Below the pieces are notes generated by a model. It made no database searches and was not told where the DNA came from. It saw only the letters and a program-made list of their open reading frames with translations. Both the position numbers and the translations under genes were made by a program. A stretch of 64,000 bases of DNA from Planctomycetota bacterium (GTDB lineage Bacteria > Planctomycetota > UBA1135 > UBA2386), in NCBI GenBank assembly GCA_965223545.1, contig OZ245006.1:3904001-3968000 (forward strand). Direction: 5' to 3'. Shown piece by piece: positions 5,114-19,306 of the stretch. How positions within the stretch are numbered: the stretch's first letter is position 1; every line of letters begins with the position of its first letter.

Positions 5114-7330
5114 TCAGGACTCGCGGCCGGGTTTCGCGCTTCCCGAAGCCTTCGCAGCCGGCGAGGCCTTCGCGCCCGGCGTAGCCTTCGCGCCCGGCGG
5201 CGCTTGCGCGGCGGGGGCCGCCGGGGCCGGCGGCGGCGCGCTCGACCCGGCCGGTTTGGATGCCCCCTTCTTCTCCGGCTCGGATCGAGGAATCTGAAAG
5301 CTGTTCTCCACCGGCTGGGTGAGCATGAACAGATCCATCTGCGAGTAGTGCGCCGTGAGGCGCTCGATCGCCCCACGCGCGGCGACCGCCTGCTCGCGCA
5401 CGGCGTCGAACGGCTCGAGCAGCCGGCGGCCGTTGGCCAGTTCCGCCGCGACGACCGTGGCCTCACGCTCGATCTTGTCGCGCTGCTGGCGCAGCGCCTG
5501 CCGCACCGCCGTCGCCACCCGCTCGGTGTAGCCCCGCGCAAACCCCGCGACGATGCGATCGGTGGTCTCCTTGAAGAACGAGCGCTCGTACTCCGCCAGG
5601 CGCCGCGCCATCGCCTGCCGCGCAGGTTGGCCGAGGAACGCCTCCTTCTGCGCCGCCGAAAGGCGTTGGCCCGGGGCCTCGGCAGGGCCGAACAGGCGCT
5701 TGCGCAGACCGTTCTTGCTGCGCAGCAGGAGGCGGTCGTGCACGCGTGGCCGCAGCTCGACGTGATCCGTGCGCAACGGCGTGGGTGGCACCGCGACCAA
5801 CGCCGCGCGATCGGCGCCGCGATGGGCCGCGCGCCCGATCTCCTCCGCGTCGATCCCACATTCGGCCATCGCCGTGCGGATCTCCTCGGGAATCGCGAAG
5901 CCGACTCCGTCGTGCACCAAGCGCTCGCTCACTTCTTTGCTGATCGCGTTGATCAGCTCCTCTTGGTGCGTGGTCAAGCGCGGCACGAGCTCGCCCTTGA
6001 CCAACTGCTGGAAGCTCGCATCGCCGGCGAACCAGCTGCGCATGGCCTCGTGCAACGCGCGCGACGACCGCTCACCGACGTGCTGCGCAACGTCGCGGCT
6101 GGCCTCGTTGAGCTGATCACTGAGCGAGGCGAGTTGATCTTCCCAGCCAAAACCCTCGAGCCGCTCGATGGCCGCGAGACCGCGCTTGTGATGCTCACGG
6201 CGCTCGACCAGGCGGTCGATGCGCTTGCGCAATCGATTGATCTGCCCGTGGCCGGTGACGTCGACCGACTCCGTCAACAGCGTGCGCGCACGGCGCAGGC
6301 TGTCGCCCAAGAAGGCGACCATGTAGTCGGTGCTGTTGAGGTACTTGGTGAGGTCGTCGAAGAAGCGATCGAAGCCTCGCCGAGCGCCAGCGCCATCGTC
6401 GACGTTGCGGATCCTGGCGCTCGCCGCGCGTAGCAGATCGACCGGATAGATCCGCAGCCGACCGCTCTCGGCGGCCTGCTTGAGCGGCGCGGTCATCGCC
6501 AGATTCTCGAAGGCCTGCACGACACGCGTCGGATCGCGCTGCTCGAGGCTGGGCACCAACCGGCCGTCGGAGCTCAGATCTTGCTTGGTCGAATCGATGT
6601 TGACCAACAGGAAGATGCGGCTGAACAGCTCGAGCAGATCGGTGAACTCGGCGAACACCTGCTCCAAGAACAGATTGTCGCTGCGCACGACGAACACCGC
6701 GCAGGCGGCGGCGTTGCGGAAGTCGCGCGTCATCCGGCTGTAGCCGAATTTCATTCGGCTGTAGAGGCCGGGAGTATCGACCAGGATCGCCCGCGACTCG
6801 CCCAACCCACCGGCCGGCAGCTTGATGTCGATCCGATCGATGGCGCTGTGCAGGTGTTGGCGCGGATCGAACGTCTGGCCGGTGGCCTCGATCTCGCGGA
6901 TGCGCGCCGCCAGCTCCTCGTGTGCGGTGCCGACGAACTCCTCGAGCTTCTCCGCCGACTCGAACCTCTCGACGCGCCCGTCGTAGCGGCGCGCTTCGTA
7001 GCTGCGCCGACTGGCGTGCTGCACGAACACCATGCACGGATAGGCAGGCAGACTGCTGACTTCGCTCACGTAGCCGGCGGCGATGGCGTTCATCAGCGTC
7101 GACTTGCCGCTCTTCAGCGGGCCGAAGATCAAAACGTAGGCCTGCTGGTCGCGGACCTTGTTGCTCAACAGCTCGACCTGGCGCCGCAGATCGACGAGCG
7201 GTGTCTGGAGCGCTGCGGCCACGTCGCGCGGCGCCGAGGCAATGACCTCGGCGGCACGCCCCAGCGGCGCCTGCAACGGCCGAATGGTCCGGACGAACTC
7301 CTCGCAAAAACGGCTGAGAACAGTCTGCAT
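5114..7330 (-). CDS. Dynamin-like GTPase with helical C-terminus and low-complexity tail
   Basis: P-loop GPLKSGKST, ILVDTPG (G3), long helical region; tail with PGAKA-type repeats. Confidence 0.8.
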   Translation of the reverse strand: MQTVLSRFCEEFVRTIRPLQAPLGRAAEVIASAPRDVAAALQTPLVDLRRQVELLSNKVRDQQAYVLIFGPLKSGKSTLMNAIAAGYVSEVSSLPAYPCMVFVQHASRRSYEARRYDGRVERFESAEKLEEFVGTAHEELAARIREIEATGQTFDPRQHLHSAIDRIDIKLPAGGLGESRAILVDTPGLYSRMKFGYSRMTRDFRNAAACAVFVVRSDNLFLEQVFAEFTDLLELFSRIFLLVNIDSTKQDLSSDGRLVPSLEQRDPTRVVQAFENLAMTAPLKQAAESGRLRIYPVDLLRAASARIRNVDDGAGARRGFDRFFDDLTKYLNSTDYMVAFLGDSLRRARTLLTESVDVTGHGQINRLRKRIDRLVERREHHKRGLAAIERLEGFGWEDQLASLSDQLNEASRDVAQHVGERSSRALHEAMRSWFAGDASFQQLVKGELVPRLTTHQEELINAISKEVSERLVHDGVGFAIPEEIRTAMAECGIDAEEIGRAAHRGADRAALVAVPPTPLRTDHVELRPRVHDRLLLRSKNGLRKRLFGPAEAPGQRLSAAQKEAFLGQPARQAMARRLAEYERSFFKETTDRIVAGFARGYTERVATAVRQALRQQRDKIEREATVVAAELANGRRLLEPFDAVREQAVAARGAIERLTAHYSQMDLFMLTQPVENSFQIPRSEPEKKGASKPAGSSAPPPAPAAPAAQAPPGAKATPGAKASPAAKASGSAKPGRES

Positions 7331-8786: not shown

Positions 8787-8809
8787 GCCACTCTACCGGC
8801 ACTCTTGAA

Positions 8810-8822
8810 AGTACGGAGCCAG
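8810..8822 (+). repeat. Outer half of left REP-like repeat (inner half at 10468-10481)
   Basis: Joining the IS flanks gives AGTACGGAGCCAGGCTCCAATTCATCA containing palindrome GGAGCC-A-GGCTCC. Confidence 0.65.
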
Positions 8823-9072
8823 TCCTGCCCCGGCAGATTTGTCGGCCCTTCAGGGCAGGAAACTAGCCGCTGAGGAAGGGGGAGGGGAACGTGTGAGGGG
8901 CCCGGCAGCTACGCCCCCAATAGCCACTGGAGCACGTTTGCCCCAGAGCCAGTCTGGGTCCGAGTTGGCCATCCTTCACTGGTGAGGGGCACGTCGCCGT
9001 GCCCACTCCCGCAGGTCAGATTCGTTTGATCGCCGCCTCGGGCCGGGCCCACCACAACAATGAGGATGAAGT
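8823..9072 (+). ncRNA. Candidate IS110 bridge/seek RNA region (non-coding end)
   Basis: Multiple hairpins; contains GAGCCAGTC (8946-8954), identical to the left junction 8816-8824, and CAGGTCAG (9012-9019), identical to the IS right end 10460-10467. RNA boundaries unknown. Confidence 0.6.
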
Positions 9073-10455
9073 ATGGCTGGGAAGAGCAGAACGAGGAAGG
9101 GCAAGAAGCCCGCAGCGGAAGTATTGCCAGTCGTGAAGCCCAACGCCGCCGGAATCGACATCGGCAGCCGCGAGCACTGGGTGTGCGCAGCAGCACCCGA
9201 CGGCAGTCGTCCGATCAAGCGATTCGGAACGACGACGCCCCAGCTAGAGGCGCTCGCGGACTGGCTGGAGGAGCTCGGAGTGCGATCCGTCGCGATGGAG
9301 AGCACCTATGTCTACTGGATTCCCGTCTACGAGCTACTCGAGTCGAGAGGCTTCGAGGTCATCCTCGCGAATGCCCGCGAGGTGAAGAACGTGCCGGGCC
9401 GCTCCAAGTCCGATGCCAGCGATTGCAGTTGGCTGCAGAAGCTACACACCTATGGCCTCATTCGCGCTTCGTTCCGGCCTCCGAAGGACATCTGTGCGTT
9501 GCGGACCCTGCAACGCCATGCCGCGTCTTTGATCGCGCAGCGCACGCGCCACACGCAGTTGATGCAGCGGTCACTGGATCAGATGAACGTGGCGATCCAT
9601 CGCGCGGTAACGGACATCACCGGCAAGACCGGCCTCGCGATCATCCGCGCGATTCTCGCTGGTGAACGCGACCCTCGAGCGCTCGCCAGACTGCGTGATC
9701 CGCGCTGCAAGATCTCCGAGAAGGAGCTCGCGGATCACTTGCAAGGGACCTGGATCGAGGAGCACATCTTCACTCTCGCTTCGGGCTTGCGGATGCTCGA
9801 GCACACCGACCACGAGATCGAGTCGGTCGAGAAGCGATTGATGGCGATGATCGAGGACCTGCAACCGGAGGAAGCCAAGACGGCTGACGTCCCCGAGCAT
9901 CCAGACCCCCGCAAGGAGAGGAGCATCCGAACGAAGGGCGGCCGGGAGCTTCGCGATGCCCTCTGCCGGCTCGTCGGGTGTGATCTCACGCGAATCGACG
10001 GTATCAGCCCGAGCACGGCCATGATCGTGCTCACCGAGGTCGGCTACGACCTCGATGCTTTCCCGACCGAGAAGCACTTCGTCTCCTGGCTACGCCTGTG
10101 CCCACGTCAAGCCGTCTCGGGTGGAAAGCGCATCAAGAAGCACCGCAACAACATCGCGGTCAGCAGGATCGCCACGGTCCTCCGGATGGCCGCCCTGTCC
10201 CTCCAACGTACTCAGACAGCTCTCGGCGCACACTTCCGCAAGATCGCCCGCGCGAAGGACGGCAACGTCGCCATCTTTGCCATCGCCCGCAAACTGGCCC
10301 TGCTCATCTACCGCATGCTGAAGTTCGGCCAGGACTACGTAGACGAAGGCGCCAAGGCCTACGAGGAGCGCTTCACCCAGCGACGCATCGTCGGACTCCG
10401 ACAGAACGCTAAATCCCTCGGGTACAAGCTCATACCGATCGTCGAGGCTGGGTGA
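9073..10455 (+). CDS. IS110-family recombinase/transposase
   Basis: DEDD RuvC-like motifs GIDIG, AMEST, KSDASD; C-terminal Tnp domain with IDGIS and VSGGK serine loop. Confidence 0.95.
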   Translation: MAGKSRTRKGKKPAAEVLPVVKPNAAGIDIGSREHWVCAAAPDGSRPIKRFGTTTPQLEALADWLEELGVRSVAMESTYVYWIPVYELLESRGFEVILANAREVKNVPGRSKSDASDCSWLQKLHTYGLIRASFRPPKDICALRTLQRHAASLIAQRTRHTQLMQRSLDQMNVAIHRAVTDITGKTGLAIIRAILAGERDPRALARLRDPRCKISEKELADHLQGTWIEEHIFTLASGLRMLEHTDHEIESVEKRLMAMIEDLQPEEAKTADVPEHPDPRKERSIRTKGGRELRDALCRLVGCDLTRIDGISPSTAMIVLTEVGYDLDAFPTEKHFVSWLRLCPRQAVSGGKRIKKHRNNIAVSRIATVLRMAALSLQRTQTALGAHFRKIARAKDGNVAIFAIARKLALLIYRMLKFGQDYVDEGAKAYEERFTQRRIVGLRQNAKSLGYKLIPIVEAG

Positions 10456-10531
10456 GTTTCAGGTCAGGCTCCAATTCATCAATCCCAGACCGAACTGCGG
10501 CCCGCCAGCCCTCAACCGATGGAGGTGCAGA

Positions 10532-11533
10532 ATGCCCAGGACGACTCGGGTCGACTTCCCCGGAGCGTGGCATCACGTCGTGAACCGTGGCTTGGCGAAG
10601 AGGACCGTCTTCGAGAATCGCGCCGACATGCGTCGGTTCTTGGCCGGCCTCGCACGCGCCGTGCGTCGCGGAGAGATCGAGCTCCACAGCTACTGCCTGA
10701 TGACGACCCACTTTCACCTTCTTGTCTCGAGCCCGCGCGGTCTCCTTTCGACCGCGATGCGGCGAGTGGAGCAGAGCTACGTCCGTCGGTTCAACCGCCA
10801 GCGGCGCCGCGACGGGTCCTTGTTTCGCGGTCGGTTCTTTTCGAGGCCAGTCCACTCCGACGCGGACCGGAGAATCGTGGTGCGCTACATCGACCACAAT
10901 CCCGTGGCAGCGCGCGTCGTCGACGTGCCGACGGAGTATGAGTTCGGGAGCGCGTCTCGGTTCGCCTCCGACAGTGTTCCGCCGTGGCTCGCCATGGGGT
11001 GGATGCGTGACGTGCTTGCCGGTGCGGCGTTCGCGGGGCGATCCCGCGCCGAGACGTATCTGGATGCCTTCGGCGAGATCGGCGCCGATCACCGGCATTT
11101 GGTGCACCGGCGCATGGAGCACCGTCCTCGGGAAAGCGACCCTCTCGACGATCTCCTTGCCGCAGCTCCCGAGGCAGTGCGGCAATGGATGATGAGGAAG
11201 GCTCGCCTCGCCGACGGCAGCCGGCCGGGGTTGCCCCTCTTGGGCCCGAGATCCGCCATGTTGGCCTGTGCCGACGATCAGGCGCGACGTGGGCCCTGGT
11301 CCGTTGTGGTCCGCTCCCGTTCGCGCGACGCGTCGCGGCTGGCGCAGGTCTATCTGCTGCGCGATGGCTGCGGGTTCTCGTTTGCGGAGATCGCAAACCA
11401 ACAGGGGATTTCGCCGGCGACCGCAAGCCGGTGCTTCGACGCACACCTGGCAGCGATGAAGGAGGATCACGACTACGCGGCGCGGCTAGCGACCCTGGCG
11501 CAGGATGCCTTCAGGCGTTGTCATCAAAGGTGA
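10532..11533 (+). CDS. REP-associated tyrosine transposase (RAYT, Y1 HUH) with C-terminal HTH
   Basis: PGAWHHVVNRG, YCLMTTHFHLL (HUH), GSLFRGRF, VRYIDHNPV (catalytic Tyr); C-terminal SFAEIANQQGISPATAS HTH. Confidence 0.9.
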   Translation: MPRTTRVDFPGAWHHVVNRGLAKRTVFENRADMRRFLAGLARAVRRGEIELHSYCLMTTHFHLLVSSPRGLLSTAMRRVEQSYVRRFNRQRRRDGSLFRGRFFSRPVHSDADRRIVVRYIDHNPVAARVVDVPTEYEFGSASRFASDSVPPWLAMGWMRDVLAGAAFAGRSRAETYLDAFGEIGADHRHLVHRRMEHRPRESDPLDDLLAAAPEAVRQWMMRKARLADGSRPGLPLLGPRSAMLACADDQARRGPWSVVVRSRSRDASRLAQVYLLRDGCGFSFAEIANQQGISPATASRCFDAHLAAMKEDHDYAARLATLAQDAFRRCHQR

Positions 11534-11556
11534 TGAATCGGAGCCTGACCTGAAAC

Positions 11557-12939
11557 TCACCCAGCCTCGACGATCGGTATGAGCTTGTACCCGAGGGATT
11601 TAGCGTTCTGTCGGAGTCCGACGATGCGTCGCTGGGTGAAGCGCTCCTCGTAGGCCTTGGCGCCTTCGTCTACGTAGTCCTGGCCGAACTTCAGCATGCG
11701 GTAGATGAGCAGGGCCAGTTTGCGGGCGATGGCAAAGATGGCGACGTTGCCGTCCTTCGCGCGGGCGATCTTGCGGAAGTGTGCGCCGAGAGCTGTCTGA
11801 GTACGTTGGAGGGACAGGGCGGCCATCCGGAGGACCGTGGCGATCCTGCTGACCGCGATGTTGTTGCGGTGCTTCTTGATGCGCTTTCCACCCGAGACGG
11901 CTTGACGTGGGCACAGGCGTAGCCAGGAGACGAAGTGCTTCTCGGTCGGGAAAGCATCGAGGTCGTAGCCGACCTCGGTGAGCACGATCATGGCCGTGCT
12001 CGGGCTGATACCGTCGATTCGCGTGAGATCACACCCGACGAGCCGGCAGAGGGCATCGCGAAGCTCCCGGCCGCCCTTCGTTCGGATGCTCCTCTCCTTG
12101 CGGGGGTCTGGATGCTCGGGGACGTCGGCCGTCTTGGCTTCCTCCGGTTGCAGGTCCTCGATCATCGCCATCAATCGCTTCTCGACCGACTCGATCTCGT
12201 GGTCGGTGTGCTCGAGCATCCGCAAGCCCGAAGCGAGAGTGAAGATGTGCTCCTCGATCCAGGTCCCTTGCAAGTGATCCGCGAGCTCCTTCTCGGAGAT
12301 CTTGCAGCGCGGATCACGCAGTCTGGCGAGCGCTCGAGGGTCGCGTTCACCAGCGAGAATCGCGCGGATGATCGCGAGGCCGGTCTTGCCGGTGATGTCC
12401 GTTACCGCGCGATGGATCGCCACGTTCATCTGATCCAGTGACCGCTGCATCAACTGCGTGTGGCGCGTGCGCTGCGCGATCAAAGACGCGGCATGGCGTT
12501 GCAGGGTCCGCAACGCACAGATGTCCTTCGGAGGCCGGAACGAAGCGCGAATGAGGCCATAGGTGTGTAGCTTCTGCAGCCAACTGCAATCGCTGGCATC
12601 GGACTTGGAGCGGCCCGGCACGTTCTTCACCTCGCGGGCATTCGCGAGGATGACCTCGAAGCCTCTCGACTCGAGTAGCTCGTAGACGGGAATCCAGTAG
12701 ACATAGGTGCTCTCCATCGCGACGGATCGCACTCCGAGCTCCTCCAGCCAGTCCGCGAGCGCCTCTAGTTGGGGCGTCGTCGTTCCGAATCGCTTGATCG
12801 GACGACTGCCGTCGGGTGCTGCTGCGCACACCCAGTGCTCGCGGCTGCCGATGTCGATTCCGGCGGCGTTGGGCTTCACGACTGGTAATACTTCCGCTGC
12901 GGGCTTCTTGCCCTTCCTCGTTCTGCCCTTCCGAGCCAT
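11557..12939 (-). CDS. IS110-family recombinase/transposase
   Basis: 460 aa, differs from copy 1 only at the N-terminus (MARKGR vs MAGKSR). Confidence 0.95.
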   Translation of the reverse strand: MARKGRTRKGKKPAAEVLPVVKPNAAGIDIGSREHWVCAAAPDGSRPIKRFGTTTPQLEALADWLEELGVRSVAMESTYVYWIPVYELLESRGFEVILANAREVKNVPGRSKSDASDCSWLQKLHTYGLIRASFRPPKDICALRTLQRHAASLIAQRTRHTQLMQRSLDQMNVAIHRAVTDITGKTGLAIIRAILAGERDPRALARLRDPRCKISEKELADHLQGTWIEEHIFTLASGLRMLEHTDHEIESVEKRLMAMIEDLQPEEAKTADVPEHPDPRKERSIRTKGGRELRDALCRLVGCDLTRIDGISPSTAMIVLTEVGYDLDAFPTEKHFVSWLRLCPRQAVSGGKRIKKHRNNIAVSRIATVLRMAALSLQRTQTALGAHFRKIARAKDGNVAIFAIARKLALLIYRMLKFGQDYVDEGAKAYEERFTQRRIVGLRQNAKSLGYKLIPIVEAG

Positions 12940-13190
12940 ACTTCATCCTCCTTGTTGTGGTGGGCCCGGCCCGAGGCGGCGATCAAACGAATCTGACCTG
13001 CGGGAGTGGGCACGGCGACGTGCCCCTCACCAGTGAAGGATGGCCAACTCGGACCCAGACTGGCTCTGGGGCAAACGTGCTCCAGTGGCTATTGGGGGCG
13101 TAGCTGCCGGGCCCCTCACACGTTCCCCGCCCCCTTCCTCAGCGGCTAGTTTCCTGCCCTGAAGGGCCGACAAAATCTGTCGGGGCAGGA
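12940..13190 (-). ncRNA. Candidate IS110 bridge/seek RNA region, copy 2
   Basis: Same structured non-coding end as 8823-9072, with both guide-like matches conserved. Confidence 0.6.
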
Positions 13191-13203
13191 CTGGCTCCGT
13201 ACT
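13191..13203 (-). repeat. Outer half of right REP-like repeat (inner half at 11531-11544)
   Basis: Reconstructed minus-strand site AGTACGGAGCCAGGCTCCGATTCATCA, 26/27 identical to the left site. Confidence 0.65.
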
Positions 13204-13216
13204 ATCGCTAACCGTC

Positions 13217-14410
13217 ATGCGCGGCCGCCGACTCACTGCACTCCTCGTTGTATCTCTCTCCGGGGCCCTCCCGGCCCAAGAGCCGGCCAAGACCTCCGGG
13301 GTCACGGCTGCAGATCCGTTCCCGACCGCGTCGGCCGCCGAGGTCGGTCTCGACCCCACGCGACTCGACACCCTGGTCGACGCCGTGGTTGAGCACGTGG
13401 CGTCCGGGGATCCGGTCGGCGCCGAGCTGCTGGTGATCAAGAACCGGCGCACGGTGGTGCACGAGGCGTTCGGCTGGCGCGACCGAGAGCTCGAGAGGCC
13501 GTTCGAGAAGAACACGATCTGCCGCATTCGCTCGATGACGAAGCCGATCGTCGCGACCGGGATTTGGCAACTCGTCGGCGATGGCGAGCTTCGGCTGCAG
13601 GATCCTGTCGCGCGTCATATCGAGGCGTTCGACAACGAACTCTCGCGTTCCATCACCATCGACCATCTGCTGACCCACACCGGGGGCTTCGGCCACCCGG
13701 GGTATCCAGCGCAACTGACCAGCTATGGGTCGCTGCGTGCGGCGGTCGACGCGTCGGGTAGCGCCGGGCCGGACTCCGAGGTCGGCGCGGGCTATCGCTA
13801 CAGCGATGTCGACTCCGCCACGCTCGCGGCCGTCGTGGCCGAGATCGCGGGCCAGCCGGTCGAGTCCTACATCGCGCAGCACATCCTCGGGCCGCTGCGA
13901 ATGACGGACACGTTCTGCAACTTCGACCCGAACGATCCGCGCGCCGCTCGCGTCAGCTCGACCTACGTCCTGCGCGACGGACAGCTCGTGAAGTACTGGG
14001 ACCCGTCACGAGAGCAGCAATTGCCCTTCTTTCGCGGCAGTGGCGGCATCTACTCGACGCCGATGGACTACGCGCGCTTCCTGGCGGCGTGGATGGACCG
14101 CGGAAGCGGCCCGGACAGCCGGCTCGTGCCGGAAGGTCTGATCCCGACCGCCCTGGCTTCCACAGTCATGAGCGCAAGCGAGGCCACGCCGCGTCACTAC
14201 GCGCGCCACTGGGAAGTCCATGGCCCGGTGCGCGACGAGCATGACGTCGCCGAGCACGGCTTGCCGGTGTTCGGCCACACCGGCTCCGACGGCACCGCGG
14301 CCCTCTGCTCCCCCGAGCAAGACTTGATGGTGCTCTACTTCACGCAATCGCGCCGGGCGCAGAACTACGTCAGCGTCATCCGGCGCATCATCGAGTTGTT
14401 GAAGGGCTGA
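13217..14410 (+). CDS. Secreted serine hydrolase, beta-lactamase class C/esterase VIII-like
   Basis: Signal peptide; SMTK (SxxK), LLTHTGG, YRYSD, FGHTG motifs. Confidence 0.9.
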   Translation: MRGRRLTALLVVSLSGALPAQEPAKTSGVTAADPFPTASAAEVGLDPTRLDTLVDAVVEHVASGDPVGAELLVIKNRRTVVHEAFGWRDRELERPFEKNTICRIRSMTKPIVATGIWQLVGDGELRLQDPVARHIEAFDNELSRSITIDHLLTHTGGFGHPGYPAQLTSYGSLRAAVDASGSAGPDSEVGAGYRYSDVDSATLAAVVAEIAGQPVESYIAQHILGPLRMTDTFCNFDPNDPRAARVSSTYVLRDGQLVKYWDPSREQQLPFFRGSGGIYSTPMDYARFLAAWMDRGSGPDSRLVPEGLIPTALASTVMSASEATPRHYARHWEVHGPVRDEHDVAEHGLPVFGHTGSDGTAALCSPEQDLMVLYFTQSRRAQNYVSVIRRIIELLKG

Positions 14411-15602: not shown

Positions 15603-16265
15603 GTGTTCACCAGGCCAAGTGAGGCCTCGATGCAGATCCCCAAGACCGCAACCCCTCCCGTCTCCGAGGCTCCACACCTCGATTCGGGCAGCTGGACGCC
15701 GCTGATCGAGTCGCTCGGAGTCGCCGAGATCCTCGCCGCGCTCGGGTCCTGGATCGACACGCGCACGCGCCTGCACTGCGCGGCCGAAGACCTGTGGCAG
15801 GACACTCTCTGGCTGGCGTGGCGCGATCGCGCGCAGCACGAATGGCGGGGGCGCCGGGCGTTCAGGGCGTGGCTGCTCGGCATCGCCCGAAACCGCCTCG
15901 CCAACCTGCGCGACCGGAGTCGGGCGGCCAAGCGAGGCGGCTCCATGCATCGCATGGCCCTCGATGTCTTGCGTGAGAGCGGGTCGAGCTGCGGCGGCTG
16001 GGACATCGGGCCGGCCGAGTCGGCGACCCCGAGCCGGATCGCCTCGCATGCCGAGCGCGCCGCCCGCATTCGCGCGGCACTGCGCACGCTGCCGCCGAAG
16101 CTCGAGCCGGTCGTGCGGTTGCGGCTGCTCGAAGAGCTACCGACGCGCGAGGTCGCCCGCCAGCTCGGCATCGGCGTCTCCACCGTCAAGGACCGTCTCC
16201 TCGCGGGAGTGAAGTCGTATCGACGGGCGCTACGCCGCGAGCTCGACACCGAGACGGCGTCGTGA
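15603..16265 (+). CDS. ECF RNA polymerase sigma factor (start may be ATG 15630)
   Basis: AEDLWQDT...FRAWLLGIARNR (region 2), SATPSRIAS, LPTREVARQLGIGVSTVKDRL (region 4); overlaps the kinase start (GTGA). Confidence 0.88.
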   Translation: MFTRPSEASMQIPKTATPPVSEAPHLDSGSWTPLIESLGVAEILAALGSWIDTRTRLHCAAEDLWQDTLWLAWRDRAQHEWRGRRAFRAWLLGIARNRLANLRDRSRAAKRGGSMHRMALDVLRESGSSCGGWDIGPAESATPSRIASHAERAARIRAALRTLPPKLEPVVRLRLLEELPTREVARQLGIGVSTVKDRLLAGVKSYRRALRRELDTETAS

Positions 16266-19200
16266 GCGGGCCGGCGCTCGACACCGACGAGCGTTGGCTG
16301 GCCGAGCAGTTCGACGCTTTCGTCGAAGCCGTGCTCGAGGGCGAAACGCCCGTGCCGAGCGCGGCGGCGCAGCAGCGCCCTCATCTGGCGGATCGCTTGC
16401 GCGAGCTCGCCGATCTCGCGCGTGAAGTCAGCAATGGCAGCCGCAGCGATGATCCCACCGTCGCGCCGCCCACCGGCGCCGCCCGGCACTTCGGCGATTT
16501 CGAGCTGATCCGCAGACTGGGCCAGGGTGGCATGGGGTGCGTGTACGTCGCGCTGCAACGCAGTCTGCAACGGCTGGTGGCGCTCAAACTCGTGCACCGC
16601 GGCCACGCCAGCTCCAACGCCACGCGCGCACGGTTCGCGCGCGAGGCCAAGGCCATCGCCAAGCTCCGCCATCCCAACATCGTCGCGGTGCACGCCAGCG
16701 GCGAACGCGACGGCGTGCAGTTCATCGCGATGGAGCTCGTCGACGGCGCCGGCCTCGACGTACACATCGCCGACGCGGCCACGCCGGTGGCGCGCTACGT
16801 CGAGTGGGCCCGCGACGTGGCGCGCGCGCTCGACTACGCGCATGCGCACGGCATCGTCCACCGCGACGTCAAGCCGACCAACGTGCGCATCACCGCCGAC
16901 GGCTGCGCAATGCTGCTCGACTTCGGTCTCGCCCGCGACGAGGACGACGCCTCGCTGACGCGCACCGGCACGTTTCAGGGCTCACCCCACTACGCGCCAC
17001 CGGAGCACATCCACGGCCGCGCCGTCGGTCCACAAGGCGACGTCTACTCGCTGGGCGTCACCCTCTACGAGTGCCTCGCCGGCCGGCTGCCGTTCTCCGG
17101 CAAGACCACCCAGGCGCTGTTCTACAACGTGCTCACGCGGGTCCCGCGCACGCTCCGCAGCCTCAACCCGGCGGTATCGACCGACCTCGAGACGGTGGTG
17201 CACAAGGCGATCGAGAAGGAACCGGCGGCCCGGTATTCGTCGGCCGGCGCGCTGGCCGAAGATCTCGACGCCGTCCTCGAGCTGCGCACGATCCAGGCCC
17301 GACCCACGGGCCCGGTCACGCGCGCGATCCGCTGGGCGCGACGCAGGCCATCGGCCGCGGCGGCCATCGCCACGGCCTTGCTGGCATTGTTGGCGATCCC
17401 GGTCTCGGTCGCCGTCGAGCGCGCCGCGCATGCCCGCACACGGGTCGCCCAGGCCACTCGACTCCTGAGAGAAGTCGAAGACGGGGTGCAGACCTACGCA
17501 AGACTCTGGCGCGATCATCAGGTCATCCGCGACGCCTACAGGTCCACGGACGTCGCGATGCAACGCCGTTTCGTCCCTCGCGAGGAGACCGCGAAGATGC
17601 CCACCCTGCGCATCGACATCGCGCAGCGGCAGCAGGAGCGGCAGTCGCTGCAACACGAGCTGCTGGCAACGCTGCGGCGCGCCGAGCTTCTCGATCCGAC
17701 TCCCGCGGTGCACGCTGCGGCGGACCGCTTGCGGGCCGACCTGCTCATCGAGCTGTGGCGCGAGGAGCGCTCGATCGAGGGAGACGCCGAGGACGTGGAA
17801 GCGCTCACCGAGAGCCGTGCCCGCTCGTGGGCGCTGGCCGACCGCGTTCGCGCGCACGATACCGCGCGTCGCTACGTCGACGAGCTCGAGCAGCGTGTAT
17901 GCGATCTGCACATCATCAGCAAGGTCGACGGCGCTCGCGTGCAGCTCTTCCGGTTCACGCGCATCGGCGATGGCCGCCTGGTGCCGGCGCCGCTCGACGA
18001 GCCCGCGTCACCACCCGTCCCCTACGGCCAGCGCGTGCTGCGCGTCACCACCGCGACTCCACCTCTGCAAGCCGAGGACCTGATCACGCAGATCGCTGGC
18101 GAACCGGTGAGCGACACGATGTTCGCCTCCGATGCCACGGGGGCGTTGATGCGCGTCGTCTCGATCGACGGCCGTGCCGTCCGCGAGCTGCACGACGTCC
18201 GCAGCGCCGCCAGCGCCGCCAGCGCGGCCGGCGTCGTCGTGCGATTGCGGAACGAGGGTCGCGTGATCGAGCGACGCGCCGCATCGTGGTCGGAGCTGGG
18301 TCTGGAGTTCTACACCCCACGACAGCTCGCCGATCGCGGCGGGATCCACGCCCGCGTCTGGCACCGGGGCCGAATCACCGACCTCGAGCTGCCCCGCGGC
18401 CTGACGACCAGAACAACCGCGACCCCCTTGCTCATCGACCTCGAACAGCACGGCAAAAAGCTGCCTTGTTCGCTCACCGCGCTGACACCCGGCCACTACC
18501 TGGTGGTGGTCGAGCATGCCTGTGGCTCGCGCACTCGCCGCGTCGCCCGCCTCTACGGCCCGGGCTCGTACACGCTGGATGTGTTCCTACCCGGCACGTC
18601 GCAGAACCTGCCGCGCACCGGATTCGTCGACCTCGGTGACTTCGATGGCAGCGGCGCACACCGTTGGATCCGGGATCACGAGGTCACATGCGGTGAGTAT
18701 CTGGAGTACTTGAACGACAGCGCCACGCTGGCCGAGGTCGACGCCCACGCCCCGGTGCCGACGCGGTTCCCCCGACCCAACCCCGCCGACCGCCGCGGCG
18801 GCACCTGGCCACGGCGCGGCGGCGGCCTCTTCGCGCTGCCCGACGGCGTCACCGCCGACATGCCCGTGCTCGGCATCTCCTACTACGACGCCAAGGCCTT
18901 CGCCGCTTGGCTGACCAAGAGACACGCCGGCACCGGCATCGAGTTCGACCTACCGACCGCGACGGAGTGGTCCGCCGCCTCCCACAGTCCGGGGTTCTAC
19001 CCGTTCGGCAACCACTTCATGCCGCATTGGACCAGCTGCTGCTTCTCCCGCCCGAGCCCCGGGCTCGAACCGGTCTTGAGCTATCCGACCGACGAGACCG
19101 CGATGGGAGTCTTCGACATGAGTGGCAGCGTCTTCGAGTGGCTCGACCACGACAACCACGGCGGCGGCAAGTCGGTCGCGGGCGGCGCCTTCAACGAAGG

Positions 19201-19306
19201 CGACCGCGCGCTGTTCCGCGTCACGCACAAGACGCCGCGGCCGCCGGACTACATCGGCACCAACGTCGGCTTCCGGCTGGTTGCCCGGCGGCGCATGTCG
19301 CGTTAG
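16262..19306 (+). CDS. Hanks-type Ser/Thr protein kinase with TM segment and C-terminal FGE-sulfatase (SUMF1) domain
   Basis: LGQGGMGCVY, VALK, HRDVKPTN, DFGLA, YAPPE, DVYSLG; TM AIATALLALLAIPVSV; HEVTCGEY, LPTATEW, DMSGSVFEW, NVGFRLV. Confidence 0.93.
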   Translation: MSGPALDTDERWLAEQFDAFVEAVLEGETPVPSAAAQQRPHLADRLRELADLAREVSNGSRSDDPTVAPPTGAARHFGDFELIRRLGQGGMGCVYVALQRSLQRLVALKLVHRGHASSNATRARFAREAKAIAKLRHPNIVAVHASGERDGVQFIAMELVDGAGLDVHIADAATPVARYVEWARDVARALDYAHAHGIVHRDVKPTNVRITADGCAMLLDFGLARDEDDASLTRTGTFQGSPHYAPPEHIHGRAVGPQGDVYSLGVTLYECLAGRLPFSGKTTQALFYNVLTRVPRTLRSLNPAVSTDLETVVHKAIEKEPAARYSSAGALAEDLDAVLELRTIQARPTGPVTRAIRWARRRPSAAAAIATALLALLAIPVSVAVERAAHARTRVAQATRLLREVEDGVQTYARLWRDHQVIRDAYRSTDVAMQRRFVPREETAKMPTLRIDIAQRQQERQSLQHELLATLRRAELLDPTPAVHAAADRLRADLLIELWREERSIEGDAEDVEALTESRARSWALADRVRAHDTARRYVDELEQRVCDLHIISKVDGARVQLFRFTRIGDGRLVPAPLDEPASPPVPYGQRVLRVTTATPPLQAEDLITQIAGEPVSDTMFASDATGALMRVVSIDGRAVRELHDVRSAASAASAAGVVVRLRNEGRVIERRAASWSELGLEFYTPRQLADRGGIHARVWHRGRITDLELPRGLTTRTTATPLLIDLEQHGKKLPCSLTALTPGHYLVVVEHACGSRTRRVARLYGPGSYTLDVFLPGTSQNLPRTGFVDLGDFDGSGAHRWIRDHEVTCGEYLEYLNDSATLAEVDAHAPVPTRFPRPNPADRRGGTWPRRGGGLFALPDGVTADMPVLGISYYDAKAFAAWLTKRHAGTGIEFDLPTATEWSAASHSPGFYPFGNHFMPHWTSCCFSRPSPGLEPVLSYPTDETAMGVFDMSGSVFEWLDHDNHGGGKSVAGGAFNEGDRALFRVTHKTPRPPDYIGTNVGFRLVARRRMSR

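Follow-up and report, generated by a model that had tools for sequence, protein, structure and literature searches.

Two IS110 copies in the inverted REP-like arms of a RAYT-type gene from a Planctomycetota bacterium, with a predicted guide RNA that probably reads the repeat

How two copies of one insertion sequence (IS) come to stand in mirror image around a single gene is the question raised by positions 8810 to 13203 of a 64,000-nt window (the whole stretch of DNA analyzed) from Planctomycetota bacterium assembly GCA_965223545.1, contig OZ245006.1. In this window, two inverted copies of an IS110 recombinase gene surround a gene for a 333-aa Y1 HUH protein resembling the transposases associated with repetitive extragenic palindromes (REPs), namely REP-associated tyrosine transposases (RAYTs) or TIRYTs. 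With a probability of about 0.88, we interpret this locus as a RAYT/TIRYT-type gene between two inverted members of a 108-copy repeat family, here called REP1, each split at an AG dinucleotide by the IS110, likely through two separate RNA-guided insertions. REP targeting by IS110 elements is of a known kind; the layout of the guide RNA predicted here looks unusual.

The two arms of inverted similarity (8807–10481 and 11531–13206) differ at 11 aligned positions, nine within the IS and two in the flanks, and extend past the IS ends on both sides, as a preliminary description of this DNA had reported. Comparison with all genomic copies sets these ends at 8823–10467 for copy A (+ strand, 1645 bp) and 11545–13190 for copy B (− strand, 1646 bp), each including one AG core; the recombinase genes, both encoding 460 aa, occupy 9073–10455 (+) and 11557–12939 (−). 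Excising both copies restores AGTAC-GGAGCCAGGCTCC-(A/G)ATTCATCA on each side, which bears out the earlier reconstruction of inverted 27-bp repeats bracketing the RAYT gene (10532–11533, +; intact frame). The left repeat comprises an outer half ending in the AG core (8810–8822, +) and an inner half (10468–10481, +); the right repeat comprises an inner half (11531–11544, −) overlapping the RAYT stop codon TGA (11531–11533) and an outer half (13191–13203, −). The 13-bp palindrome previously seen within the repeat is present and can be refined: a single base separates its two arms of 6 bp, which gives a 5-bp stem closed by a CAG loop. The junction repeat, formerly given as (C)AG, is revised to AG; the preceding C is coincidental here, homologs having TAG, AAG, GAG, or CAG, and the tandem junction at C1:4827875 has no more than AG in common with its partner site.

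The sequences flanking the RAYT gene are a host repeat and not part of the IS. Within the 8.1-Mb genome (two contigs), GGAGCC(A/T)GGCTCC occurs intact 85 times, as compared with a median of 1 and a next-highest count of 22 for 60 palindromes of the same composition; after scripted removal of IS copies, REP1 comprises 108 sites, 22 of them occupied by the IS. Because 85 exact sites are empty and the 23 full IS copies differ in their flanking sequence beyond the repeat core, the possibility that these flanks belong to the IS—for which full flanks on every copy and a lack of empty sites would have spoken—is rejected. A second family, GGAGTCAGGCTCG, mismatches the guide described below and has 32 sites with no IS (versus 22/108 for REP1; Fisher p = 0.004); eight GGATCC variant sites are also all empty. 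Within REP1, a symmetric subtype (20/108 sites) has GTAC on both sides and a longer palindrome, and the CAG loop is flipped relative to GTAC in 7/108 sites.

The gene between the arms matches PF01797 at 37.8 bits (cut-off 23), with HFH at 60 and YIDHNP at 119 of the protein, and has a weak C-terminal helix-turn-helix (HTH) match (Sigma70_r4_2, 269–298; 21.2 bits, below the cut-off of 25.7). It is present in single copy and has inverted members of the 108-site REP1 family on either side, the arrangement of low gene copy number and abundant flanking repeat seen in RAYTs; the foot of the REP1 hairpin is GTAC rather than the canonical GT(A/G)G of GTAG-REPs. A 45%-identical paralog at C1:1729868–1730845 has inverted repeats of its own, the GGAGTCAGGCTCG family resembling its arms (29 exact 26-mers, and 32 census sites free of the IS); this paralog follows closely on a gene end that, by eye, resembles a tyrosine recombinase. 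Among 60 relatives, an uninterrupted inverted repeat scoring at least 18 surrounds the gene at 13/16 near-full-length homolog loci, the arrangement for which the preliminary description had proposed to look. Position, a paralog with its own repeat family, and these uninterrupted repeats support REP1 as the probable cognate repeat of this RAYT, in keeping with the earlier assignment.

The mobile element itself shows IS110 family traits: its recombinase scores 93.6 bits for PF01548, 52.5 bits for PF02371, and 248 bits for NF033542 (cut-off 140), carries an AVSGG motif at residue 347, and is associated with a specific target, a single orientation, and a short AG core at both junctions. Non-coding sequence amounts to 250 nt upstream and 12 nt downstream of the gene, as in the IS110 group; the subterminal repeats (7–17 bp) and downstream non-coding region of the IS1111 group are lacking, and the only inverted motif seen is GAAAC(T)/(A)GTTTC, 6 bp, whose distance from the IS end is 7 nt on the right and ~37 nt on the left. 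The 23 full copies in the genome are 99.45–100% identical. GAGCCAG precedes all 23, and GCTCC follows 22/23, the single exception being a tandem-duplication junction. The duplication, at C1:4826058–4829693, comprises an IS copy and 173 bp of upstream flank, and at its junction the right-end AG meets an upstream AG exactly, which suggests off-target recombinase action. Direct duplications of repeat halves (~14–16 bp) were also observed beside the IS, on one side at C1:1015082 and on both sides at C1:4330732/4332376; a distant IS110-like gene (26% identity), present three times, and a 114-bp piece of the IS were found at C1:2860778, 4224717, 5136103, and 988107. No end-to-end IS circle junction was identified in the genome or among listed unitigs, though contigs drop rare forms.

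Since copies A and B fall into different allele classes, differ at nine IS positions, and have identical twins elsewhere—one for copy A (C1:5042863, 1.1 Mb away) and five for copy B—the two insertions at the RAYT arms are likely to have been separate events, as the preliminary description had supposed. Copy A has three 3′ alleles in common with the copy B class, which may be ancestral or converted.

What directs the IS to these repeats may be sought in its left end, which is predicted to encode a two-loop bridge RNA with guides that covary with target and donor in homologs. Homolog searches returned 155 loci, of which 110 were complete enough for use and 39 of those had at least 50% identity; the alignment contained 38 sequences, including that of the window, and a consensus fold was obtained from 31 non-redundant sequences. 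The predicted core (8897–9051, +) comprises an outer stem (8897–8906/9042–9051), a target loop (8913–8959), and a donor loop (8960–9041), with compensatory pairs in the outer stem and inner donor stem; this IS110 trait, a two-loop RNA with target and donor guides, is a computational prediction, and Rfam gave no real match for the core. The 3′ strand of the target loop (predicted guide GAGCCAG, 8946–8952, +; same sense as the left flank of the target plus core) matches the target left flank at 4.5/5 nt in homologs versus 1.88 when shuffled, across 18 distinct guides. The corresponding 3′ strand in the donor loop (predicted guide CAGGTCAG, 9012–9019, +; same sense as the IS right end) matches the right end at 4.8/5 versus 2.42, across 10 guides. 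For both, column-wise agreement is highest at the expected positions. The 5′ strand of the target loop (predicted guide AGC-(CA)-CT, 8922–8928, +) complements top-strand AG-GCT with a 2-nt CA bulge; the first bases right of the core match at 1.43/3 versus 0.78 over 30 pairs, and at 3/3 in the window element, in a register that was picked after data inspection. The signal emerges only when the sequences are anchored on the CA-CT motif and is confined to this one register, with none at offsets 1 or 2. A column-by-column search of 21 sequences recovered no complementary guide for donor right positions +1 to +7 and no clear column for the target right. The resulting order, with the bottom-strand guide on the 3′ side (strong) and the top-strand guide on the 5′ side (weaker), is not that of the IS110 group.

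The 7-mer GAGCCAG occurs 1936 times in the genome; the combined 10-mer target occurs 126 times, 110 of them in repeats, including all 22 occupied sites. Recognition of REP1 by the predicted guide RNA is the likely reason that the IS is found in this family. The nearest relative (L061; 78% amino acid identity), in genome G064, has the guide GTGCCAG and is inserted in GTGCCAG-GCACAGAAG, a repeat flanking a RAYT homolog; G064 contains 41 + 33 matches to GGTGCCWGGCAC, versus 1 + 2 for the control. Genomes with multiple homolog copies gave 1–3 matches each, too few for target logos. Other targets are also apparent among homologs: target guides of L143, L165, and L145 match the right ends of related IS110s, these elements being inserted beside other IS110 ends. 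At L225 (G064:C1:19063–23028), the upstream repeat of a RAYT homolog has an 11-nt insertion in the hairpin core, adjacent to the point at which the related IS110 enters repeats of this type.

A further segment of the donor loop covaries with the element in a less familiar manner. The bases right of the donor core vary freely, and segment X, on the 5′ strand of this loop (8971–8978, +), is not complementary to them; instead, X mirrors, in the same sense, a segment X′ 23–30 nt inside the left end (8845–8852, +), just 3′ of a conserved hairpin (8830–8845, +). Across 21 unique pairs from 34 loci (L061–L167), 24/32 departures from consensus are mirrored between X and X′ (shuffle mean 4.6, maximum 15); the pair in the window was misregistered by the parser and agrees at 6/8 by eye. 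A search of 21 sequences revealed no segment of the element that is consistently complementary to X, and at 19 loci neither X nor the analogous target-loop segment, taken as an 8-mer, matched the 45 nt of target flank better than shuffles did. The preferred reading is that X pairs distally with the bottom strand across the hairpin; alternatively, X and X′ may both pair with an antisense RNA, or may represent a common protein-binding motif. A broader proposal, which we advance tentatively and regard as somewhat doubtful, is that the IS110 clade with ~460-aa recombinases has a bridge RNA flipped relative to the gene and would recognize the right half of its donor in a manner not yet described, in which the donor-loop 5′ strand would read an 8-nt site 23–30 nt inside the left end across a looped-out hairpin, leaving the first four post-core bases free, and that one sub-lineage would have retuned its target guides to changes in RAYT-type repeats.

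Taken together, these observations are consistent with a model in which the RAYT likely spread its repeat through the genome, providing ~108 intergenic landing sites for the IS, among them both arms of the RAYT itself. The IS would excise as a circle, as suggested by IS621 and ISPpu10; the left-end bridge RNA would pair with both strands of GAGCCAG-GCT, using GAGCCAG for the bottom strand and AGC..CT for the top; and strand exchange by the recombinase would take place at AG. Oriented insertion into inverted targets would then produce the symmetry of the locus, which needs no special cause, since the repeat sets the orientation of the IS and its two copies here face opposite ways. The preliminary description of a symmetric composite stands with respect to the symmetry and the presence of two IS110 copies on REP-like arms, but not as a composite transposon: the symmetric arrangement is a by-product of oriented insertion into inverted repeats.

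It might be supposed that RAYT arms are preferred targets, with RAYT binding or the repeat hairpin aiding recombination, such that the double hit was selected or facilitated. At 20.4% occupancy, a given pair would be doubly hit with p = 0.041, and a target stem-loop is described as raising ISPpu10 integration (10.64898/2026.03.19.712850); fully symmetric REP1 sites are also occupied more often (7/20 vs. 15/88), albeit with p = 0.12. However, ~24 repeat pairs exist in the genome (hand count, RAYT pair included), among which two double hits were observed against 1.0 expected (P = 0.26), and the 10-nt guide match alone places 110/126 sites in repeats, leaving P = 0.05 for 22/22. None of 19 homolog RAYT loci has an IS110 match within ~1.5 kb of flank, although those genomes mostly lack this IS. 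The double hit on the RAYT arms fits chance, and we consider a preference for them improbable. The other doubly hit pair, C1:1714943/1716634, is a doublet in which the loop of one repeat is flipped relative to GTAC and the orientation of the IS tracks the loop; orientation is therefore dictated by GAGCCAG.

Inverted repeats of 1.67 kb at 99.4% identity, such as these arms, can recombine, so that a single insertion might have reached the second arm through gene conversion or inversion at the locus; misassembly could produce the same picture. The three 3′ alleles of the copy B class in copy A are compatible with such an exchange, but the nine differences, the separate twins of each copy, and the lack of a reciprocal mosaic in copy B make it very unlikely. 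Assembly is also supported by short-read unitigs: those of one sample (X1–X3), which may be the source, begin inside one IS end, traverse the RAYT, and reach into the other IS end (10443–11558/11560), and they also cross the junction of left flank and IS, with IS:RAYT depth ratios of 23.4, 23.8, and 19.6, and a unitig from X4 links the IS to the right flank; runs X5–X7 yielded scattered pieces only. Equally remote is the prospect that IS-RAYT-IS constitutes a composite transposon or a phase-variable inversion switch. Its symmetry would suit either, and IS110 recombinases are able to invert DNA between programmed sites (PMC11208160). Against this, the RAYT is single copy, each IS is enclosed by its own complete target, and the two copies belong to different allele classes, on which grounds the composite transposon is rejected; moreover, inverted IS copies would not be expected to excise the segment as a circle. 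No excision, circle, inversion, or other strand-changing joint is listed among the unitigs, which is not evidence of absence; on inversion they are uninformative, because short unitigs cannot phase 1.65-kb repeats. The inversion of the RAYT segment suggested in the preliminary description thus has nothing positive in its favor.

Several points weigh against the interpretation of two guided insertions into RAYT-spread repeats. The RAYT scores 63.5 bits for NF047646, below the cut-off of 80. Transposition, RNA expression, and RAYT cleavage are all putative. The 60 relatives searched, none of them from the same genus, offered no empty allele of this locus. For the right flank, the guide signal covers 3 nt in a post hoc register and is weak, with 16/30 pairs matching at 0–1 of 3, and the homologs are related rather than independent, so that shuffle p-values overstate significance. 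Finally, p = 0.04 for this one pair may leave room for a mild preference for RAYT arms.

With two guided insertions as the favored interpretation, the locus would display in one place the chain from RAYT-type gene to repeat family to IS110 landing, for a non-GTAG repeat with a GTAC foot and CAG loop; the double hit as such is what chance would predict. It also provides a recently active bridge-recombinase system, with 23 near-identical copies, known ends and target, and predicted guides. Together with this IS, L061 forms a natural reprogramming pair, and the donor-loop covariation is a further feature of value. Neighboring genes encode a dynamin-like GTPase (5114–7330, −) and a beta-lactamase-family serine hydrolase (13217–14410, +); further along, an extracytoplasmic function (ECF) sigma factor gene adjoins one for a Ser/Thr kinase that carries an FGE-sulfatase domain (15603–19306, +).

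Limited searching of the literature found no account of a RAYT hit twice or of a donor guide in a distal position, which is limited evidence, and searches for a REPtron with IS621 or an IS110 bridge RNA with an AG core also returned no match. RAYT genes with inverted repeat flanks and ISs that target REPs have been described (PMC2817692), and insertion of IS110s into REPs under bridge RNA guidance is established (PMC11208160; 10.64898/2026.03.19.712850; PMC13626964). The RAYT here most resembles TIRYTs and TIRtrons, TnpA-Y1 subclass 2.1 (PMC3733652; 10.1101/279083), and RAYT group 1 (PMC5581495), with which it shares a long Y1 HUH protein, Y---NP, and possibly a C-terminal HTH-like region; as in TIRYTs, inverted repeats lie near the gene, one over its end, and repeats are dispersed singly and in doublets. 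In contrast to these groups, however, the repeat starts with GTAC and has the core GGAGCCAG, rather than GTAG or GGGGWSAS.

Among IS110 elements, IS621 of E. coli (PMC11208160) shares PF01548 and PF02371, a long left non-coding end, a two-loop RNA, a 2-bp core, and insertion into REPs. Its protein is distant (328 aa vs. 460 aa here, the best-scoring match spanning residues 306–421 only), and it differs from the present element in three further respects: here the gene strand reads AG at the core, both loops carry the long bottom-strand guide in their 3′ half, and a search for an adjacent right-donor guide revealed a distal covarying segment instead. ISPpu10 of Pseudomonas putida (10.64898/2026.03.19.712850) and, reportedly, ISPpu9 are likewise multicopy IS110s in a fraction of REP sites, many of them paired; they have a CT core and a target preceded on its 5′ side by a stem-loop, whereas here the cut would fall in the loop of the repeat hairpin and the 10-nt guide match explains most of the specificity. 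The seekRNAs of IS1111 elements have the same match order, top-strand complement then bottom-strand match, with the top-strand complement second in the IS110 group (PMC11187229); in contrast to those elements, the present one has its non-coding region on the upstream side of the gene and shows no inverted motif beyond the asymmetric 6-bp one. The guide layout is that of an upstream RNA with IS1111 order, which we take to be equivalent to a loop of IS621 type viewed from the CT strand, and it may already be catalogued among the many deviant bridge RNA structures of 10.64898/2026.10.21.760802. Possibly new in relation to these systems are the IS1111-like guide order in an upstream RNA and the donor-loop segment that covaries with DNA inside the left end.

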